A stretch of 14,247 bases of DNA from Promethearchaeota archaeon Loki_b31 (GCA_005222975.1 NJBI01000071.1:1-14247); one strand, 5' to 3'. Counted from the stretch's first letter, positions 5,185 to 14,247 are shown. Notes: generated from the letters alone by a model not told the origin. A program made the numbers and translations.

Positions 5185-6660
5185 CTAATAACTCTTGGCA
5201 ACATACACTGTACATCCAGCGGGTTTCCCACAAATTAAGCAAGTGGCGAACTCATGTTTCTCTTCATCTACTCTTTTACCTCTAACCTCCGCACCAATAT
5301 CTTTTTCAACAACTTCAGCGCAATGTTCACCATCTAAATCTATAGAACAAAAACCACAAGCCACTATTTTTCCGTTTTTAATTGCTTCAATTGCTGCGTC
5401 CTTCTCATAAGTCAATTCTATCTGCGATTCAAAGTCGATCATAGACTTTTCTTTAATTTCTTTAGTATAGTTTTGAGCAATTTCATCTACAACTTTTTCT
5501 AGATCGGGATCCTTTACAAATATCTTCTTCCCATCGTGTCTTTTTACTAAAACCATTTGGTTTTTTTCTAAGTCTCTTGGTCCGATTTCAATCCTTATCG
5601 GGACTCCTTTTAATTCCCAATTGTAAAATTTACTTCCTGGTGACTCGTCAGAATCGTCGATTTTAACCGTATAATTGCTTTTTAACCTTTCACATATTTC
5701 TTTTGCTTTAGTTAGAACGATATCCTCTTTTTCTTTGAAGAGTATTGGAATAATTACTATTTGGATTGGTGCTAAATCAAAAGGTAAAACTAACCCTTGG
5801 TCATCCCCAAGATATGCAATCATAGCTCCATAATTTCTACTTTGAGAAGGGCCATAACATGTCTGATAACCATATTTCTCTTCTCCATCTGTATCTACAA
5901 ATTTTACATCAAATGGCTTTGAGAAATTCTGTCCTAACAAATGCGTTGAAGGCAACTGCAGAACTTTTCCAGATCCCATTAATGCGTCAGCAGCATAAGT
6001 ATGAACGGCTCCTGCAAATTTATCCCATTCTGGTCTTTGAAAAAAGATTATAGGGATACAACACTCGTCCTGAAGAATCTGATAAGTCGTTTCCATATCC
6101 TCTTTAACTTGTTCCATCGCACCCTCCATTGTAGCAAAAACATTGTGTGCTTCAATCCAATGAAATTCTCTGCCTCTAAGAAATGGTCTTGTCATTTTTC
6201 CCTCATATCTCCAGACTTGGCATGAAAGATATCTTTTATAGGGTAGATCCTTATAACTTCTTATCCACATTGAATACATTTTATATAGCGCAGTTTCGCT
6301 AGTTGGGCGTAATGCCAAACGTTCTGATAATTTGCCAGAACTACCTGCTTCTGTTACCCAAAATAGTTCTGGAGCAAAACCCTCAACATGTTCTGCTTCT
6401 AATAAGAAATTCGATTCTGGGATAAGAGAAGGCATTGTCAGTGGGAGATGACCTTTTTTTTCTAACAAATCTTCAGATTTTTTATACATTTTTCTAATTG
6501 TGATGGTTGCCCATTCTCGATAAACGACAAATCCTTTAATATTATATCGAATATCAGCTAACTCTGCCTTGTTTATTAGCTCCGTGTACCAACCGGAAAA
6601 ATCCTCTTCTTTAGAAACTGTGATTCCCGTTAAAGGAGCTTCCTTTTTCTTTTTAGCCAT
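5185..6660 (-). CDS. proS: Proline--tRNA ligase, archaeal/eukaryotic type
   Basis: FSGWYTE, EAEHVEGFAPE, LALRPTSET, motif 2 WRYE..TRPFLRGREFHWIEAH, KFAGA, HLLGQNFSKPF, anticodon domain WELKGVPIRIEIGPRD, a C-terminal Cys cluster and the terminal AKSY. Confidence 0.98.
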   Translation of the reverse strand: MAKKKKEAPLTGITVSKEEDFSGWYTELINKAELADIRYNIKGFVVYREWATITIRKMYKKSEDLLEKKGHLPLTMPSLIPESNFLLEAEHVEGFAPELFWVTEAGSSGKLSERLALRPTSETALYKMYSMWIRSYKDLPYKRYLSCQVWRYEGKMTRPFLRGREFHWIEAHNVFATMEGAMEQVKEDMETTYQILQDECCIPIIFFQRPEWDKFAGAVHTYAADALMGSGKVLQLPSTHLLGQNFSKPFDVKFVDTDGEEKYGYQTCYGPSQSRNYGAMIAYLGDDQGLVLPFDLAPIQIVIIPILFKEKEDIVLTKAKEICERLKSNYTVKIDDSDESPGSKFYNWELKGVPIRIEIGPRDLEKNQMVLVKRHDGKKIFVKDPDLEKVVDEIAQNYTKEIKEKSMIDFESQIELTYEKDAAIEAIKNGKIVACGFCSIDLDGEHCAEVVEKDIGAEVRGKRVDEEKHEFATCLICGKPAGCTVYVAKSY

Positions 6661-6775: not shown

Positions 6776-7561
6776 TTAATCAGGATTTAAATTAGCGTTA
6801 GTAATGATCGAGCCAGTTAAAAAATCTTGCTCCAGTGTAAGATCGGTAATTTCTAGAAGTAAGATTATAGCTTCATAACCTTTTGAAATGAGATATTCTT
6901 TTAATTCTCTCCCAATTTTTTTCAATAACTCCTCATCTGTAGAATAAATAGAATAATGTATAATTGCATTTGGATTATTGATAAACTCCGCCCTGTTTAG
7001 GATTTCTTCATTATTAAGAATCGCTACCTCGTCCGCACCAGCAATTATAGCGATCTTTTTGATTTCTGCTTCTAAAGTTCCAAAAGTAAAGAATTGCTTA
7101 CTCCCCGATTCGATTTTTTCAGCTAATATTCGTTCTAAATCTTCACGAGTTTTCTTGTCGTAAAAAACCGTTAACTCTTTAGAACTGATTTCTTTATATT
7201 TACCCGATATTAAATTTTCTTTCTCATTAATGAAATCTATAATAGTTTCGTAATATTGATCATCTAATTTTTGAAACTCCTCAACGCATCTTATAAAATG
7301 AGTCAGTTTGTCTATTAAATCGTAATAGAATTTTAATCGAGATTTAATCCTGAGCTTATCGCTAATTTGTTTTATTTCTGGATAATATTTCTTTAGGATG
7401 AGATTAATGTTTTTGTTACTAAGAGCGCATAATTTTGCGACCTTTTCCGAATATTTAATGGATTTATAATTAAATAATTTTAGGATATCTTGTTCCAATT
7501 TAGTGAGGTCGTCAAAGACCTCTGAGATCTTATTGTTATACTTTTTCTCAATATAAGACAT
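6776..7561 (-). CDS. Hypothetical soluble protein (helical N-terminal part, alpha/beta C-terminal part)
   Basis: 261-aa ORF, co-oriented between the PlsY-like genes and proS, with an AGGA SD-like sequence before the ATG. No family recognised. Confidence 0.8.
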   Translation of the reverse strand: MSYIEKKYNNKISEVFDDLTKLEQDILKLFNYKSIKYSEKVAKLCALSNKNINLILKKYYPEIKQISDKLRIKSRLKFYYDLIDKLTHFIRCVEEFQKLDDQYYETIIDFINEKENLISGKYKEISSKELTVFYDKKTREDLERILAEKIESGSKQFFTFGTLEAEIKKIAIIAGADEVAILNNEEILNRAEFINNPNAIIHYSIYSTDEELLKKIGRELKEYLISKGYEAIILLLEITDLTLEQDFLTGSIITNANLNPD

Positions 7562-7629: not shown

Positions 7630-7758
7630 TTATAAACCAAACAACAGTGCTACGGTCATAATTGATCCTGTTATTAAAGGAACTGTAAGATTGTCATTTA
7701 CATTCATTGAAAACATTTCAACTAAAGGTGCTGAGATACCCCCTAGAATTAAAACAAT
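7630..7758. repeat. Near-identical 3' tract shared with 9019-9147
   Basis: Manual alignment gives 5 mismatches in 129 nt, and 7670-7758 vs 9059-9147 differ at 1 of 89 nt. Confidence 0.9.
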
Positions 7759-8835
7759 TAATGGAATATTTAAACTAGTATAGAGTATGTATCCCATAAT
7801 AAGAACGCTCCCAATATATGCTAATGTACCTTCTAATGTCTTATTCAATATTTTATGTCTCCCAAATGCTAAACCGAAAAGCTTTCCAAATATATCACCA
7901 TAGATTAAAAAGGATGATGCAATGAATGCTACTTCTTTCGGAAATACTAATAATGTAATAAACAAGGCAACAAAAAAGATGGTAAAAGACGAAAATTTTT
8001 TAATTTCATTTTTCCTAAGTAAAGCCTTTACTTTTGTCTTCAATACCTCATTGGTTTTTTTATGCATAAATCTAAAGATATCAAATGCTACCAAAACTAG
8101 GGTCACACTTCCAAGTATATATAAAGAAGGAACTTTAGTGAAAATACTATAAAATATTAAAAAAATAATCGCAAATGGTCTTATCGCAACACGCCACCTA
8201 TATGTCTGAAAATTCGTGTCTTCTATCTTAAATTTACCTTCTTTCAAGATATTATAAATAGCAATCGTAGTAATATGGGCAATTACAATCCAAAAAAAGA
8301 TGTTATATTGACAATCCGGGAAATAAATGTATACAGAATAGCCAAGAAGAGGAAGCACTACAATACTTAAAAGAGTCCAAATTCTAGAAATATAATAAAA
8401 TATTACTGAAAGAAGAATTAAATAAAATAGAAAGAAGATAAATTCAGTATTGGTTATTAAATAATTCATTAAATAGCAAAGAAGCATTCCTGTAGCAGCA
8501 GCAACACCCTGGCCGCCTCTAAATTTTAAATAGAATGGAAATATGTGACCTACAATTGTCATCAATCCACTTAAATGAGCCACAATAATGTTAGTTCCTA
8601 AGCTTAATGTTATTAGTATAACTAACAACCCTTTAAAAATATCAAATATGGCCGTGGGGATCCCATATTTCACCCCTAACGTCTGAAATGTATTTATTGT
8701 TCCTGCGTTTTTGGAACCAACTTCCCTTATATCGATTTTTTTCAGTCTCCCAAAAAAATAGCCAGGATTAATACTACCAAAAAAATAACCAAATAATAAA
8801 CATAATATGCTAATCAAAATTTCTAAGGGTTCCAT
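7630..8835 (-). CDS. plsY: Fusion: PlsY-like acyltransferase domain + CTP-dependent polyprenol/diacylglycerol kinase (SEC59/DGK1/VTE5-like) domain, copy 1
   Basis: N-half: GSINPGY, DIREVGSKNAGTIN, DIFKG, GHIFP..FRGGQGVA. C-half: LRKNE, GD...LFG..FGRHK, KTLEG, DNLTVP. A GAGG SD lies upstream. The symbol reflects homology only, since the active-site residues deviate. Confidence 0.88.
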   Translation of the reverse strand: MEPLEILISILCLLFGYFFGSINPGYFFGRLKKIDIREVGSKNAGTINTFQTLGVKYGIPTAIFDIFKGLLVILITLSLGTNIIVAHLSGLMTIVGHIFPFYLKFRGGQGVAAATGMLLCYLMNYLITNTEFIFFLFYLILLSVIFYYISRIWTLLSIVVLPLLGYSVYIYFPDCQYNIFFWIVIAHITTIAIYNILKEGKFKIEDTNFQTYRWRVAIRPFAIIFLIFYSIFTKVPSLYILGSVTLVLVAFDIFRFMHKKTNEVLKTKVKALLRKNEIKKFSSFTIFFVALFITLLVFPKEVAFIASSFLIYGDIFGKLFGLAFGRHKILNKTLEGTLAYIGSVLIMGYILYTSLNIPLIVLILGGISAPLVEMFSMNVNDNLTVPLITGSIMTVALLFGL

Positions 8836-8994
8836 TTCTTATCCTCATGTTTGATGCTTTTCTTCTGTTGGCTTTTTTATAACGCATGTGTATTTACATT
8901 TTAATCCATATATATCTTGTATTTAGTGATATTTAAACTCTAGTCCTATCAAAATCATAGAAAAATTACATTGTTAAGTATGATAAAAATAATG

Positions 8995-9005
8995 AAAAAA
9001 AAAAA
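8995..9005 (-). terminator. Oligo-T (T11) archaeal-type terminator after fusion copy 2
   Basis: A11 run on the + strand beginning 14 nt past the stop at 9019. Confidence 0.5.
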
Positions 9006-9018
9006 TTTTTAGGGCTTT

Positions 9019-10239
9019 TTATAGACCAAACAATAGTGCTACTGTCATAATTGATCCAGTTATTAAAGGAACTGTAAGATTGTCATTTAAATTCATTGAA
9101 AACATTTCAACTAAAGGTGCTGAGATACCCCCTAGAATTAAAACAATCAAAGAAATCTCTAAGTTAGTATAAAGAAAGTATCCCATAATAAGGACACTTC
9201 CCGCATATGCTAGCGTACCTTCTAAAGTTTTGTCCAATATTTTATGCCTTCCAAATGCTAACCCAAAAAGCTTACTAAACGAATCTCCGAATATCAGAAA
9301 CGATGCGGCTATAATCGCTACGTTTTTCTGAAATAACAATATAGTTATAAACATCGCAACTAAGAAGATAGTCATTGACGAAAATTTTTTAAATTCAGTT
9401 TTCCTTAATAGAGCTTTAACTTTTGTTGCTATTAATTCATTTGCTTGTTTACTCATAAACCTATAAATATCAAATACTATAAAAAATAGCGCTACGATAC
9501 CAATGAATTGCAATGTAGTTATTTGCGGGTAAAATACGTAAAATATTATAAATAAAATAGCGAACGGTCTTATGGCTACCCGCCACCAGTGAGTTTTAAA
9601 AGTTTTGTCTTCAATCTTGATTACTTTCCCCTTTACCATATCATAAAAAGTAACAGACATATCATAAGCTATTACTATCCAAAAGAAGAGATTATAAGGG
9701 CTTTCAGGATAATAAATAAAAGCAGTATATCCGAGTAAAGCAAGTACAATAAGCGCGATAATTACTCCTGTTCTAGTAATGTAAACAAAAATCACAATTA
9801 TAAAAATTAAATAGCAAAAAAGAAAAATAAGCATTTCGGGGCCAACAAGAATATAATTTAATAAATAAGCAAGTAAGATACCTGAAGTACAAGCCATTCC
9901 TTGACCACCGCGAAATTTAATATAAAATGGAAAAACATGTCCTGCAATAGCAGCTAAACCACTTAATTGCGCGAAGACAAAATCAGCTCCCATACTCAGT
10001 GCTATGAAAATAACAAAAACACCTTTTAGAGTATCAAATATCGCTGTTGGTATTGCAAATTTAAGTCCTAAATTATGATAAGCATTTACAGTGCCAGCAA
10101 TACCATCGCCTTTCTCTCTTATATCGAATTTTTTTAATTTACCAAAAAAATAAGCCGGGTTTATTGAACCTATAAAATAGCCTATAACTATAACTAAAAT
10201 ATTTATTGTGATTGTAAAAATCTCCATAAAATCTCCCAC
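9019..10239 (-). CDS. plsY: Fusion: PlsY-like domain + CTP-dependent lipid kinase domain, copy 2 (true start probably ATG at 10227)
   Basis: GSINPAY, DIREKGDGIAGTVN, DTLKG, GHVFP..FRGGQGMA, then LRKTE, GDSFSKLFGLAFG, KTLEG, DNLTVP. A GGGAG SD precedes ATG 10227. Confidence 0.88.
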   Translation of the reverse strand: MGDFMEIFTITINILVIVIGYFIGSINPAYFFGKLKKFDIREKGDGIAGTVNAYHNLGLKFAIPTAIFDTLKGVFVIFIALSMGADFVFAQLSGLAAIAGHVFPFYIKFRGGQGMACTSGILLAYLLNYILVGPEMLIFLFCYLIFIIVIFVYITRTGVIIALIVLALLGYTAFIYYPESPYNLFFWIVIAYDMSVTFYDMVKGKVIKIEDKTFKTHWWRVAIRPFAILFIIFYVFYPQITTLQFIGIVALFFIVFDIYRFMSKQANELIATKVKALLRKTEFKKFSSMTIFLVAMFITILLFQKNVAIIAASFLIFGDSFSKLFGLAFGRHKILDKTLEGTLAYAGSVLIMGYFLYTNLEISLIVLILGGISAPLVEMFSMNLNDNLTVPLITGSIMTVALLFGL

Positions 10240-10257
10240 TCTTTAATAAAAATCTTG

Positions 10258-10345
10258 TTTCCACGGAAATAATATTAAAAATTATTTTGTGATTAATAAT
10301 CCACAATCTCTGTGACTATTAATCCTATTTTTAATTTTATTTAAA
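10258..10345 (-). promoter_or_regulatory. Putative promoter of fusion copy 2 with operator-like repeats
   Basis: TTTAAATA on the minus strand at 10338-10345. Direct repeat TGTGA(T/C)TA(A/T)TAATCC at 10288-10302 and 10311-10325. TTGTG-N10-CACAA at 10287-10306 and TTTCC-AC-GGAAA at 10258-10269. Confidence 0.45.
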
Positions 10346-10370
10346 TTTTAAGCAAACCAAAAATCAAGAA

Positions 10371-12112
10371 TTAATGATAAAAATATAAAAACCGTTCCAT
10401 ATAATACAAAAAAATCTGGTTATAATAACCTGAAAAATAAAAATCGCTTGCGTGTCCGCCTAATAACATCCATAATATAGCACATTCATAATTTCCTTCA
10501 GCTAAATATGTATTTCTAAAATTATTTGTTATACTAAAATAATTAAGAATATCATGGGTACCTTGGAAAATTAAACACGGTGGACTATCTTCATCAATAA
10601 GTTTTTCAGGATTTTTAAATTCTTCTTTTCCATCAATTCCAAAATAAACCATTTGACCATTTGCGGGATAAAATGGGATTAAACCTTTAATTGTTAAATT
10701 TTGACTAAAAATATCTGTATATTTTCCGCTTGCTATTGCTAAAGCCATAGCAGATGCAAGATGGCCCCCAGAAGATCCTCCACTAATAAATACAGAGTTT
10801 AATTTAGCGCCGTATTCATCTGCGTGTTCAGCGAGGTAAATCGTGAAAATGCCGAGATGACGCATCATATCATCGATATTAAAATCTCCCTTATTATAAT
10901 CGGGTGTACTAGGATCAACAAAAGGCATTGTTCCGTCAAATAATCCGTATTGTATGTCAAATACTATGTATCCTTAAGCTGCAAAATATTTATTCATCTG
11001 CATCATGTTCATATGTCCTTTATCCCCAGAAACCCACCCACCACCATGGATCCTAATAATAGTTGAATTTTCTCCAGGAAGGTTTTTCCCTCGATTTAAT
11101 GGCATATAAGCATCAAAGTATAGGCTTATACCTTCGTCTTTATAAAATAAAGTTTGTTCTTCAATAATACTGCCTTTAGGAGGAATTCCTAAAAAATAAC
11201 CTGGAATTGAAAAAGTAGTTTGTAAAAAATAATTGTTTACTTCAACGGGGATTTCTTCCCGCCAATCTTGACCGAACATTTCTATAAACCTCTTCTCAGC
11301 ATTAAATACTATGGAATGAGTTAAAAAAAAAGGCATCATAGAAATCCCAGAAATTAGAATTCCAATAATTGCTGTTCTATAATATTTTTTAGGATTCCAT
11401 TTTTTCTTTTTTAATTTTAAATATATAATTGTATTTGCCAAAAATATAAATGAAAAGAATGTACCAAATTGAGGGGTAAATAAAACGATACCAGTTGTTA
11501 TTATTTCAAATACACCAAATAATACATTAATCGCAAAAATAATACCAATAATAAAAGTTACCCGCGTAAGAATCATAAAAATTTTATACAATATTTCTTT
11601 AGCTCTAATAATTTCTTTAGATTTTATTCCTTCAAACCTTTTTTTGAATTTCCAAAAATTTTTGTTTTTAATGTTTGTAATATCAATTAATCCTATAAAA
11701 ATGCCAAAAATTAAAATCCCAAAATAAAAAAATAGGTTGTTAAATATGCTCCAAAATTTTCAATTCCTTCATTTGAATATGTCACAGAGGTAGATAAATT
11801 ACCTGACATCAAACTTAGCATAGCAAAAATCATAAAAACTAAATAAAAATAACAAATTAAGCTCGTTCTTTTTCCTAATCTATTCGCATTATTTATTTTA
11901 TCCAAATTAAGATATACAAGTAAAAGATTGACAAATAGACTTATTAATAAAATAATCCCAAAAACATCCCATAAAAAAGAATATAAAGGTTTCACAAGGT
12001 AAATTATTCCTAAAATAATACTAGCTAAATTTAAGACTACTGATAAGTAACTAACATTTTTGATAGTAAAAATTTCAATAATTTTATTTAACTTGTTTTT
12101 AAAATCTATCAA
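10371..12112 (-). pseudogene. Membrane-anchored alpha/beta hydrolase (HGGG / hormone-sensitive-lipase-like esterase), split into three ORFs
   Basis: ORFs 11711-12112, 10974-11591 and 10371-10928 join into about 580 aa, given one extra base in the T7 run (11726-11732) and read-through of the TAA at 10974-10976 (YFAA*GYIVFDIQYG). HGGGW, GGSSGG, GTHD and GGHASD motifs are present, and the N-terminus is multi-TM. Confidence 0.88.
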
Positions 12113-12449: not shown

Positions 12450-14247
12450 TGTCGTGCGATCTGCGGTATCTAATGTGCGAAAAGATTATAGAAAAAATTA
12501 CGATTGAAAACCGTTTTTTTGTGACCTCTTTAATTTTAAGAAATAAGACTGAGAGAGAAAGCATAATTAATTTATTCATTGAATCAAAGATTAACCAAAA
12601 AGAATAAATAGGCGAGAAAATAATAGTTAATTATTGATCGTAAAAATGAGCCATCATGATAATAATTTTATATAGAATTAAACCCAGTATTTATCAAACT
12701 CAGTTGACAGACTTCATTGGATTAGAATCCATAGAGAAATATGACATGAATGTTCCAAAAGATTACAGAATAGCCCGAAAAAAGTTTCGATAGTTACCTA
12801 AACATCCCACTTGGGGGAAGCGGAGAACGTCCACTACGAGGCCCTTGACCAAATCCCAGAAAAAGATACAGGACTTCATAGATTGGGAGCCTAGACTAAA
12901 GGATAAATATTTATACAGGTTCCCACGCGTAAAGATCCCTCGTTTTGAAGAATTCGGATTGGGAATGATCTCTAAAATTGAATGGGATTTACATCGATAT
13001 CTTAAGGGATTTAACGAACTCTTTGAAAACTTATTTGAATTTAATGATTTTAGCTATTTTCAAGATTTACAAGGAATCCTTGAGAACCGCGGCGTGTCAT
13101 TTAAGGATATGTTTATTGAAGATGTGCTCGCCTATGAAATGTTGCGGATTAACTTGGGCTTTAAAAACTATACAGAAATTGAAAGAATGGGTAGATTCCT
13201 TGCTTATCCACCCTTATTCAGCATCACACACGATCCTAACTTCTTTCCCAACGCACGAGATATCAGTTATGTGCTCACGAGGATCCCTGCAGAAGCGCTG
13301 TTTGAGTTCTTTCAGCTGTTGGTGAAGGAGTGCGTTGATTGTGGGATAATCGTCCCAAGAATCCTAATTTGGGACGGTCAATTCATACGCTCAAATTGTA
13401 ACAATAATAAAAAGAAAGGACAATCAAAATATACTGATCCAGATGCTGGTTATTGTCGACATAACGGCATAAAAAAAGGAGTAGGCTATGACCCTGGAAT
13501 ACTATATGCTCATTGCTTTAATCGCTGGTTTCTTATATATTTCAAGATGTTTCCAGCAAATCGGAACGATATTCTTGCGTTTAGAGAAACCATGGAAGGA
13601 TTTTTTGCTCTTACAAAATATAAATGACAAGTTCTCATAGCAGATTCAGGACCATACTTTCTGCAAAACATGGAAAATATGCGGTTTAAAGGGTTAATAC
13701 CTATTATTCGAGCAAGGAAGAATCTGAAAACCCATCCTATAAGAGAATTAAAAAAAGGATTTTTTTTCAATACCAACTATATCCCAGACGGGTGGTCGGA
13801 CGATTATTTTTTCAAGATCTACAGCTTTCGACCTATGATTGAGCAAGGAAATTCATATAATAATACGTATTACAACGCCTATCGAATGAATAACAGGGGC
13901 ATGGATGCGGCGATAAAACTTCGCTCTCTTATTTATATTTTAGAACTATTGAAAGCGTTGACGGCGTATAAATTAGGACGACCTGATTTAATAATGAAGC
14001 CTTCTGCTTCTGAATCTTCTCGGCATTCCAATTTTAGACGAATGCTTCCCTATGAAGCACAGAAATCTGGATATCTTTACTTTAATTCCGAAGACGTATT
14101 ACACCGACGAATTAAAAATCTTTATGGAATATTTTTCTGCATATTGCTTTAGTGCTTCGTCAATTTTGCCACTTATATTTACTTGCGTCATTTTCCTTAA
14201 CCTAATTCTGTTATCTGAATAAAAACAAATAAAATATTAAAAACATT
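12450..14247 (+). mobile_element. Degenerate insertion sequence, boundaries approximate
   Basis: Transposase pseudogene with visibly higher GC than the flanks. No terminal inverted repeats or target duplication were identified, and the right end may be outside the window. Confidence 0.55.
12746..14152 (+). pseudogene. DDE transposase (IS4-like clan; IS5/IS1182-like) with two in-frame stops
   Basis: One frame runs from ATG 12746 to 14152 (468 codons), interrupted by TAG 12791-12793 and TGA 13625-13627. Motifs LIWDGQF (D1), DPDAG...GY, LIADSG (D2, directly after the TGA) and YSFRPMIE (Y-x2-R-x3-E). Confidence 0.85.

Follow-up and report, generated by a model that had tools for sequence, protein, structure and literature searches.

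Do the membrane-protein genes clustered in an Asgard archaeon form a machine for salvaging and remodelling ester lipids? The question is raised by a 14,247-base contig (C49) of Promethearchaeota archaeon Loki_b31 (GCA_005222975.1, NJBI01000071.1:1-14247), which was analysed over its entire length and is called the window here; it belongs to a 3.5-Mb Asgard genome bin that is 92% complete. A first-pass annotation had placed a candidate lipid salvage module at positions 7630-12112, consisting of a membrane esterase and two acyltransferase-kinase fusions (named fusA and fusB below). We found that the three genes are present there on the minus strand. They are also real beyond chance, since their homologs number in the hundreds and the ratio of nonsynonymous to synonymous substitution rates (dN/dS) against the related locus L001 was 0.19-0.57. 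Both fusions are intact, unlike the esterase, which is broken. With regard to function, we give an even chance to the reading that these genes form a neighbourhood of membrane enzymes for lipid esters rather than an obligate three-gene machine, with the two halves of each fusion acting in sequence.

Each fusion is a single integral-membrane protein of two halves, and the N-terminal half carries the PlsY fold. Membership of PF02660 was clear (119.6 and 89.8 bits, far over the gathering cut-off of 24.1), the PlsY half found 5xj5 in a profile search of the PDB (E 9e-23), and the AlphaFold model of fusA (pLDDT 84.6, pTM 0.79) retrieved PlsY 5xj7 with Foldseek (E 1.2e-5, probability 1.0, TM-score 0.67 on the target); the whole-model search brought back PlsY alone. 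fusA and fusB were 63% identical and fell into separate, well-supported paralog clades in the tree, so that their duplication is an old one. The true start of fusB is likely the ATG at 10227, where its orthologs begin. In motif 1 fusA reads GSKNAGT and fusB reads GDGIAGT; because the old paralog clade of fusB keeps G-D/S-G-I/V-A-G-T, the latter is a conserved variant and not a sign of decay.

The public names of these proteins read "glycerol-3-phosphate acyltransferase", and Asgard homologs are already known and have been counted as PlsY in the literature (PMC6431249, PMC6737245, PMC13400652). Together with the strong PF02660 matches, this would make the fusions ordinary glycerol 3-phosphate (G3P) or glycerol 1-phosphate (G1P) acyltransferases, producing lysophosphatidic acid for bacterial-type membranes and carrying an unrelated add-on domain. 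Comparison with PlsY of Aquifex aeolicus (5XJ5-5XJ9) argues otherwise. In that enzyme the acyl-phosphate is held in a "phosphate hole" formed by His92 and the backbone of loop 3, and the G3P pocket consists of S35, R45, K104 and N180, plus S142 and H177; most single changes in this pocket cost more than 90% of the activity (PMC5700162). The fusions share with it the seven-helix fold, the outline of motif 1 and the phosphate hole, as the His92 equivalent and the Gly-rich loop 3 (GGxG, in the pattern GH..P...F.GG.G) were kept in 70 of 70 fusions. In contrast, the S35 equivalent in the same 70 proteins was mostly Thr (49, with Ser in 10 and Asp in 7), the R45 equivalent varied (Lys in 22, His in 15, Arg in 14, others in the rest) and the K104 equivalent was mostly Gln (50, with Arg in 11, Lys in 7 and Glu in 2). 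At these three positions fusA has S/Q/Q and fusB D/H/Q. Motif 3, which includes H177 and N180, is deleted, being a gap when the fusions are aligned to E. coli PlsY. Judged from these alignments, the G3P clamp is not retained and most of the G3P-clamping residues are lost. The fusions differ from bacterial PlsY also in the joined 200-aa kinase domain and in their scores of 106.9 and 89.1 bits, which are under the TIGR00023 equivalog cut-off of 137.2, and no source of acyl-phosphate was found in the genome. The annotated G3P acyltransferase function is the least likely one, since the clamp is missing and no known donor source was found, and we regard it as very improbable. Similarly, because the PlsY half is without the clamp, the reacylation of glycerol phosphate that had been proposed for these genes is not suggested by their sequence.

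The C-terminal half is a lipid kinase of the SEC59/DGK1/VTE5 type (dolichol kinase, yeast diacylglycerol kinase Dgk1 and plant phytol kinase), a predicted cytidine triphosphate (CTP)-dependent enzyme that has all residues invariant in the family. Kinases of this type belong to the CdsA/CarS CTP-transferase superfamily (PF01148). The C-terminal ~200 aa of the window fusions had no Pfam match even at E 10, PF01148 included, no informative NCBIfam match and no PDB match by sequence or profile. A profile built from 30 fusion C-terminal halves matched 4789 library proteins, including stand-alone proteins of 190-223 aa whose source names are dolichol kinase or diacylglycerol/polyprenol kinase family (E 1e-19 to 1e-26). 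Of such stand-alone relatives, P0235 scored 23.6 bits on PF01148 against the cut-off of 24, and PF01148 was precomputed for P0280 and P0308. When a model of the kinase half by itself (pLDDT 84) was compared with 48,161 chains, the top two were CdsA 4q2e (Z 9.4, 175 residues aligned, root-mean-square deviation 7.4) and CarS 5guf (Z 7.2, 98 residues aligned, deviation 2.9), Z values under 13 being not decisive for helical bundles; Foldseek returned 4q2g at a weak E of 0.32. The fusions and 16 stand-alone relatives share the invariant residues R12, R52, E74, D111, G118, G133, D178 and N179, and the motifs common to the fusions and the stand-alone kinases are RK, D..R, E, GD...G...G, K[ST]xEG and E...DDN. 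We take this motif type to be that of the SEC59/DGK1/VTE5 kinase branch and not the CdsA signature, and the invariant residues presumably match those that are essential in yeast Dgk1. Besides this profile-level homology, the fusions differ from the family in two respects: they are always covalently joined to a PlsY-like domain, and an invariant Lys (GDxxxK, 70 of 70 fusions) stands in place of the Ala of the family motif GDxxA that the stand-alone proteins have. A functional tie between the halves is suggested by the 431-aa library protein P0266, in which the two domains exist in reverse order, kinase first and PlsY second. Another library protein, P0218 (570 aa), carries both domains behind 167 additional N-terminal residues.

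The fusion was confirmed in 584 stretches of one-genome-per-species data. The best 79 of these 584 loci came from 69 Asgard bins and 10 bacterial bins, the latter mostly Aminicenantes with a single WOR-3 and a single Caldithrix, and bacterial and archaeal copies separated with full support in the tree. The distribution of related genes was counted in 150 genomes sampled from the phylum and grouped in GTDB families (f1, f2 and so on), of which f1 is the window's own. Among them the fusion was confined to f1 (15 of 25 genomes), so that an Asgard-wide distribution was rejected; submitter labels on some fusion loci (Thor, Odin, Hermod) disagree with this one-family picture. Outside f1, PF02660 was found in f5 (13 of 13 genomes), f14 (4 of 4), f22 (4 of 7) and f4 (1 of 2), and also in f24, f25 and f27, in stand-alone open frames of about 215-290 codons, many but not all of which span the whole profile. 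Stand-alone PlsY occurred together with DegV and Dak2 in f5, f14, f22, f24 and f25; the exceptions were f4, in which neither DegV nor Dak2 was found, and f27, which had DegV only. All 13 genomes of f5 had DegV/FakB, often in 9-15 copies and in 2-3 copies in two poorly complete bins. In two f5 loci (L134:3315-6704 and L136) PlsY was followed by a 509-516-aa protein of no family and then by DegV. Family f1 itself had DegV/FakB in 0 of 25 genomes, PlsX in 0 of 25 and Dak2/FakA in 1 of 25, and PF13684, the C-terminal domain of FakA, was found in none of the 150 Asgard genomes.

The lack of PlsX and FakA in the window, which the first-pass annotation had pointed out, extends to the whole genome: PlsX, FakA and FakB were found neither in the window nor elsewhere in the 92%-complete bin. 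The genome-wide search that it had proposed recovered GGGP synthase (GGGPS) and PlsC-type acyltransferase domains, found no PlsX, DegV, FakA C-terminal domain, Dak2 or GpsA, and gave only weak matches to iron-containing alcohol dehydrogenase where G1P dehydrogenase was expected. Within Asgard, PlsY accompanied by a Fak-like kinase and the fusion of PlsY to a CTP-type kinase take each other's place. Such a pattern would fit a kinase half that has taken the place of the Fak system, and the complementary distribution is the chief support for a fused kinase that supplies a phosphorylated donor. The FakA/FakB-PlsX-PlsY system by which Firmicutes use outside fatty acids is similar in that a kinase is paired with a PlsY-type transferase, and as a possible way of bringing free fatty acids into lipids; other Asgard families have the Fak-PlsY set as operons. 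The fusions differ in their membrane CTP-type kinase of another fold and in their acceptor site, and FakA, FakB and PlsX were not found beside them.

The third gene, the esterase (10371-12112), has seven transmembrane (TM) helices and the HGGG and GxSxG motifs (HGGG at 11037-11048, GGSSGG at 10764-10781). Its third piece matched BD-FAE (PF20434) with 42.9 bits and Abhydrolase_3 (PF07859) with 31.1 bits, the L001 ortholog reached 69.4 bits on BD-FAE, and NCBIfam gave weak matches to models of the hormone-sensitive-lipase type. By sequence, the PDB entry closest to the L001 ortholog was the esterase 4n5h (E 6e-9), to which the motifs could be aligned. The window esterase thus resembles family IV (hormone-sensitive-lipase type)/BD-FAE esterases such as 4N5H of Lactobacillus rhamnosus in its HGGG and GxSxG motifs and its Abhydrolase_3/BD-FAE profile, and differs from them by a 265-residue seven-TM N-terminal anchor as well as by its broken gene. 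The anchor matched no known family, and the ESM Atlas yielded nothing usable for the membrane domain. Hydropathy and the positive-inside rule, applied to an ortholog, gave seven helices with the N-terminus inside and the C-terminus outside, two of the inside loops being strongly Lys/Arg-rich (12 and 8 K+R); the catalytic domain would probably face the outside of the cell. Among the best 120 matches to the esterase, every taxon-named one was Asgard.

That the hydrolase is broken had been recognized, and two lesions account for its three pieces, which amount to ~580 residues when read through. One is a 1-bp deletion near 11728, where global DNA alignment with L001 and L004 showed that the C within TTTTTCTT is missing at gene position 385; it is the sole indel between this gene and that of L001, and piece 1 shares 93% identity with the N-terminal part of the unbroken ortholog in L001. 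The other is a premature TAA at a position where 28 of 28 related loci have Gln (CAA or CAG, motif AAQGY). Intact orthologs consist of one open frame of 574-607 codons from stop to stop. Recoding of the stop codon was ruled out, as the orthologs read Gln rather than a stop there, and so was a programmed frameshift, as all 28 keep a single frame. Since dN/dS against L001 was 0.19, the inactivation is recent or an assembly error. A second esterase paralog of the same genome (C85:5378-7070, L089), 38% identical, is also frameshifted, ~10-15 codons further downstream than the window copy, and keeps Gln at the TAA position. Either both copies are decaying or both reflect assembly indel errors in A/T runs.

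Linkage of the genes was scored on those of the 69 Asgard loci that have enough flank, namely 50 for the esterase and 60 for orf6776, the gene downstream of the fusions. The esterase was upstream of the fusions and co-oriented with them in 26 of 50 loci, which belong to a single GTDB family; in 9 of the 26 it was directly adjacent and in 17 it was 1.4-3.3 kb upstream. In five loci with such a gap that were examined, the gap holds a gene for 310-330 aa, which is TFIIB by Pfam in L044. Among ten sampled genomes that have both the fusion and an esterase ortholog, three have the two within ~2 kb on one contig and seven have them on different contigs, although linkage is not judgeable in three of the seven, in which the fusion is at a contig end. 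Conservation of the neighbourhood across Asgard genomes, which the first-pass annotation had named as a check, was therefore seen in 26 loci but in just one family and mostly (17 of 26) at distances above 1.3 kb, and in about half of the cases hydrolase and fusions were unlinked in related genomes, which it had named as speaking against a module. In bacteria, where gene contexts were read from open reading frame (ORF) calls and Pfam, the esterase was absent from all 24 fusion loci. The usual context in Aminicenantes is YjeF / fusion / gap / pgk; gap is also the neighbour of the fusion in 10 or more other bacterial loci, largely from Aminicenantes, with pgk following wherever the contig extends. 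Two related Aminicenantes loci (L079:10001-16547 and L119) have the order fusion-plsY(canonical)-fakA-degV-gap-pgk.

These data bear on the full module, a single functional unit for salvage in which foreign ester lipids would be deacylated by the esterase outside the cell. The fusions would reactivate the freed fatty acids, esterify them again onto glycerol phosphate and phosphorylate the product, so that ester or hybrid lipids are built. Adjacency and co-orientation here and in the other linked loci speak for it, and so do the outward prediction for the catalytic domain and an operon of family f22 in which an esterase is independently paired with a PlsY system. There, a gene for a lipase-like alpha/beta hydrolase comes after Dak2-DegV-PlsY in 3 of 4 loci (L135:3088-6522, L139 and L140), the parts being a short FakA-like protein (Dak2 plus a middle domain, 341 aa), a full-length PlsY and a 264-aa hydrolase. 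Against the module stand the esterase matches in f2, f5, f7 and f12, which had no fusion match in the sample, the bacterial fusion loci without esterase, the 17 loci with a gap above 1.3 kb (filled by a TFIIB gene in the five examined), the genomes with the two genes on different contigs, the terminator-like T11 run between the fusion genes, the missing G3P clamp and the loss of an intact esterase gene in a genome that keeps both fusions whole. The co-orientation itself has little weight because nearly all genes of the 14-kb contig sit on the minus strand. Gene order was also marked down as functional evidence because the linkage of the prolyl-tRNA synthetase (ProRS) gene and orf6776 to the fusions is tighter than that of the esterase. 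We consider the full module unlikely. The lipid salvage module as first proposed is partly supported: the identities of the genes stand, and the predicted orientation and the f22 operon favour the idea, but an obligate module is not supported and the sequence does not suggest reacylation of glycerol phosphate.

The same data raise the opposite possibility, that the esterase is unrelated both to lipids and to the fusions. It would then be a conserved Asgard exo-esterase whose substrates are small esters or polymers bearing acetyl or feruloyl groups, kept adjacent by a gene order that one family has inherited. Its best Pfam match, BD-FAE, was built on feruloyl and acetyl-xylan esterases, and the surrounding block contains unrelated housekeeping genes. 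It is also far more widely distributed and better conserved than the fusions (53-74% against ~50% identity): it was present in 21 of 25 genomes of f1, as a ~590-aa protein of 53-60% identity in f2, f5 and f27 (the PlsY copies of f27 were left out of the fusion test), and in a shorter form, 38-40% identical, in f7 and f12. On the other hand, the seven-TM anchor holds the active site at the membrane surface, the NCBIfam matches, weak as they were, point to hormone-sensitive-lipase types, and an esterase is paired with PlsY in another Asgard lineage. An esterase unrelated to lipids is possible, if on the doubtful side. In our preferred reading, the link between esterase and fusions is optional because the esterase gene has recently been inactivated here while both fusions stay intact; the association of the three genes is best described as loose and lineage-specific, with a possible flow of products from the esterase to the fusions.

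The preferred reading, in which the two halves of a fusion would work one after the other on one lipid, can be set out as follows. Acting on external esters, the esterase could release fatty acids or lipid alcohols and thereby supply the fusions. The kinase half would most likely use CTP to make a phosphorylated donor within the membrane, and we favour as this donor an acyl-phosphate formed from a free fatty acid, in place of the absent FakAB and PlsX. Acyl transfer by the PlsY-like half would follow, onto an acceptor bound differently from G3P, such as the hydroxyl of a lipid or of glycerol. The more specific proposal that the fused CTP-type kinase may be a membrane-integral fatty acid kinase, making acyl-phosphate in place for the PlsY-like half, is a tentative and rather unlikely one. 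Several points weigh against the preferred reading. A kinase of the SEC59/DGK1/VTE5 family that phosphorylates a carboxylate is not known, the known substrates being lipid alcohols. The complementary distribution is effectively one phylogenetic contrast, f1 versus the rest, and bacteria with the fusion often hold DegV too, FakAB and canonical PlsY coexisting with it there. The esterase linkage fails in half of the loci, and the wider conserved block holds TFIIB, ProRS and a permease. Finally, cultured Lokiarchaeia showed only archaeal lipids, according to the mention of Imachi 2020 in PMC13400652.

The strongest rival for the fusions is the handling of prenols or archaeol, since lipid alcohols are the substrates of all known members of the kinase family. 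The kinase half would then phosphorylate a prenol (phytol, geranylgeraniol or a dolichol-type polyprenol) or archaeol, the PlsY-like half would serve the same alcohol as a remodelled partner that binds lipid phosphate or forms esters, and the esterase would free prenols from esters such as chlorophyll-derived or wax esters in the sediment, with no fatty-acid membrane lipid being made. The family to which the kinase belongs, and the names dolichol kinase and polyprenol kinase given by the sources, are consistent with this, the lost phosphate clamp for G3P fits a non-phosphorylated hydrophobic acceptor, and the genome has GGGPS, hence ether lipids are made. Also, phytol recycling in plants combines an esterase with the phytol kinase VTE5 and an acyltransferase (cf. 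PMC8054155). However, the hole specific for acyl-phosphate is strictly retained, the fusion-specific Lys beside the catalytic Asp is not found in stand-alone prenol-type kinases, the distribution complements the Fak system and not any isoprenoid enzyme, and the fusion adjoins plsY-fakAB in the two Aminicenantes loci described above. We hold isoprenoid salvage to be improbable.

The remaining features of the window are listed with the three genes in Table 1. Five genes follow one another on the minus strand, namely the esterase in its three pieces, fusB, fusA, orf6776 and ProRS. The fusion genes form arrays of one to four per locus, and orf6776 is their most constant neighbour: it follows within 2.5 kb in 50 of 60 evaluable loci, usually at 70-150 bp, with ProRS next. 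The orf6776 product matched no Pfam family and gave nothing usable from the ESM Atlas, and a profile of 14 orthologs only weakly matched (E 0.21) the YPE...helix motif in Sfh5 (6w32), a lipid transfer protein of the Sec14 type; it could be a lipid-binding partner. The first-pass annotation had supposed separate promoters; the T11 run directly after the fusB stop and AT-rich TATA-like boxes upstream of fusA, as read from the sequence, agree with separate transcription of the fusion genes. ProRS was only 81% identical to its counterpart in L001, while each flanking gene was 90-94% identical; against L002, L011 and L014 it was 95-96% identical, and the synonymous distance (dS) to L001 was saturated in ProRS and 0.06-0.15 in the esterase and fusions. 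Such values resemble a mosaic produced by recombination between closely related strains. At the contig end (12400-14247) the GC content climbs from 0.21 to 0.36 and the genes switch to the plus strand, where two ORFs had no match in Pfam; this part may be a mobile or foreign segment.

Table 1. Positions of features in the window, counted from its first base.
Feature	Positions	Strand	Description	Basis
ProRS	5185-6660	minus	prolyl-tRNA synthetase	
orf6776	6776-7561	minus	261-aa soluble protein of no family, downstream of the fusions	no Pfam match
fusA	7630-8835	minus	downstream fusion, 401 aa; PlsY-like domain ~8227-8835, CTP-type lipid kinase domain (predicted) 7633-8226	
T11 run	8995-9005	minus	directly 3' of the fusB stop; putative terminator-like archaeal signal	read from sequence
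fusB	9019-10239	minus	upstream fusion, 406 aa; PlsY-like domain ~9616-10227, CTP-type lipid kinase domain (predicted) 9022-9615	
Esterase pseudogene, piece 3	10371-10973	minus	catalytic domain with GxSxG nucleophile elbow GGSSGG	PF20434, PF07859
Premature TAA	10974-10976	minus	CAA>TAA in esterase catalytic domain	28/28 related loci CAA or CAG
Esterase pseudogene, piece 2	10977-11759	minus	TM5-7, two Lys/Arg-rich inside loops, start of catalytic domain with HGGG	stop-to-stop frame, translation
1-bp deletion site	11727-11729	minus	shifts esterase frame	window T7; L001 and L004 read TTTTTCTT
Esterase pseudogene, piece 1	11711-12112	minus	N-terminal membrane part, TM1-4, ends at frameshift	ORF list; ortholog hydropathy
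ORF	12845-13627	plus		no Pfam match
ORF	13670-14152	plus		no Pfam match

Asgard "plsY" has been cited as a sign of a capacity for bacterial-type ester phospholipids in the archaeal relatives of eukaryotes (PMC6431249, PMC6737245, PMC13400652), and in the literature searched there was no paper that joins PlsY with the SEC59/DGK1/VTE5 kinase family. The "plsY" of family f1 is no plain PlsY: its G3P clamp is missing, a lipid kinase is fused to it, and it sits where other families have PlsY with a Fak-like system. This changes the meaning of "plsY" in f1, which is weak evidence for bacterial-type membranes. If the fused kinase does make acyl-phosphate, it would be a third route to this compound beside PlsX and FakAB, and by loading scavenged fatty acids on an acceptor other than G3P this Asgard family could obtain ester or hybrid ether/ester lipids. 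The three genes may handle scavenged lipids, and they offer a definite pair of enzymes with testable substrates that bear on the use of fatty acids by these archaea and, if there is such use, on its route.

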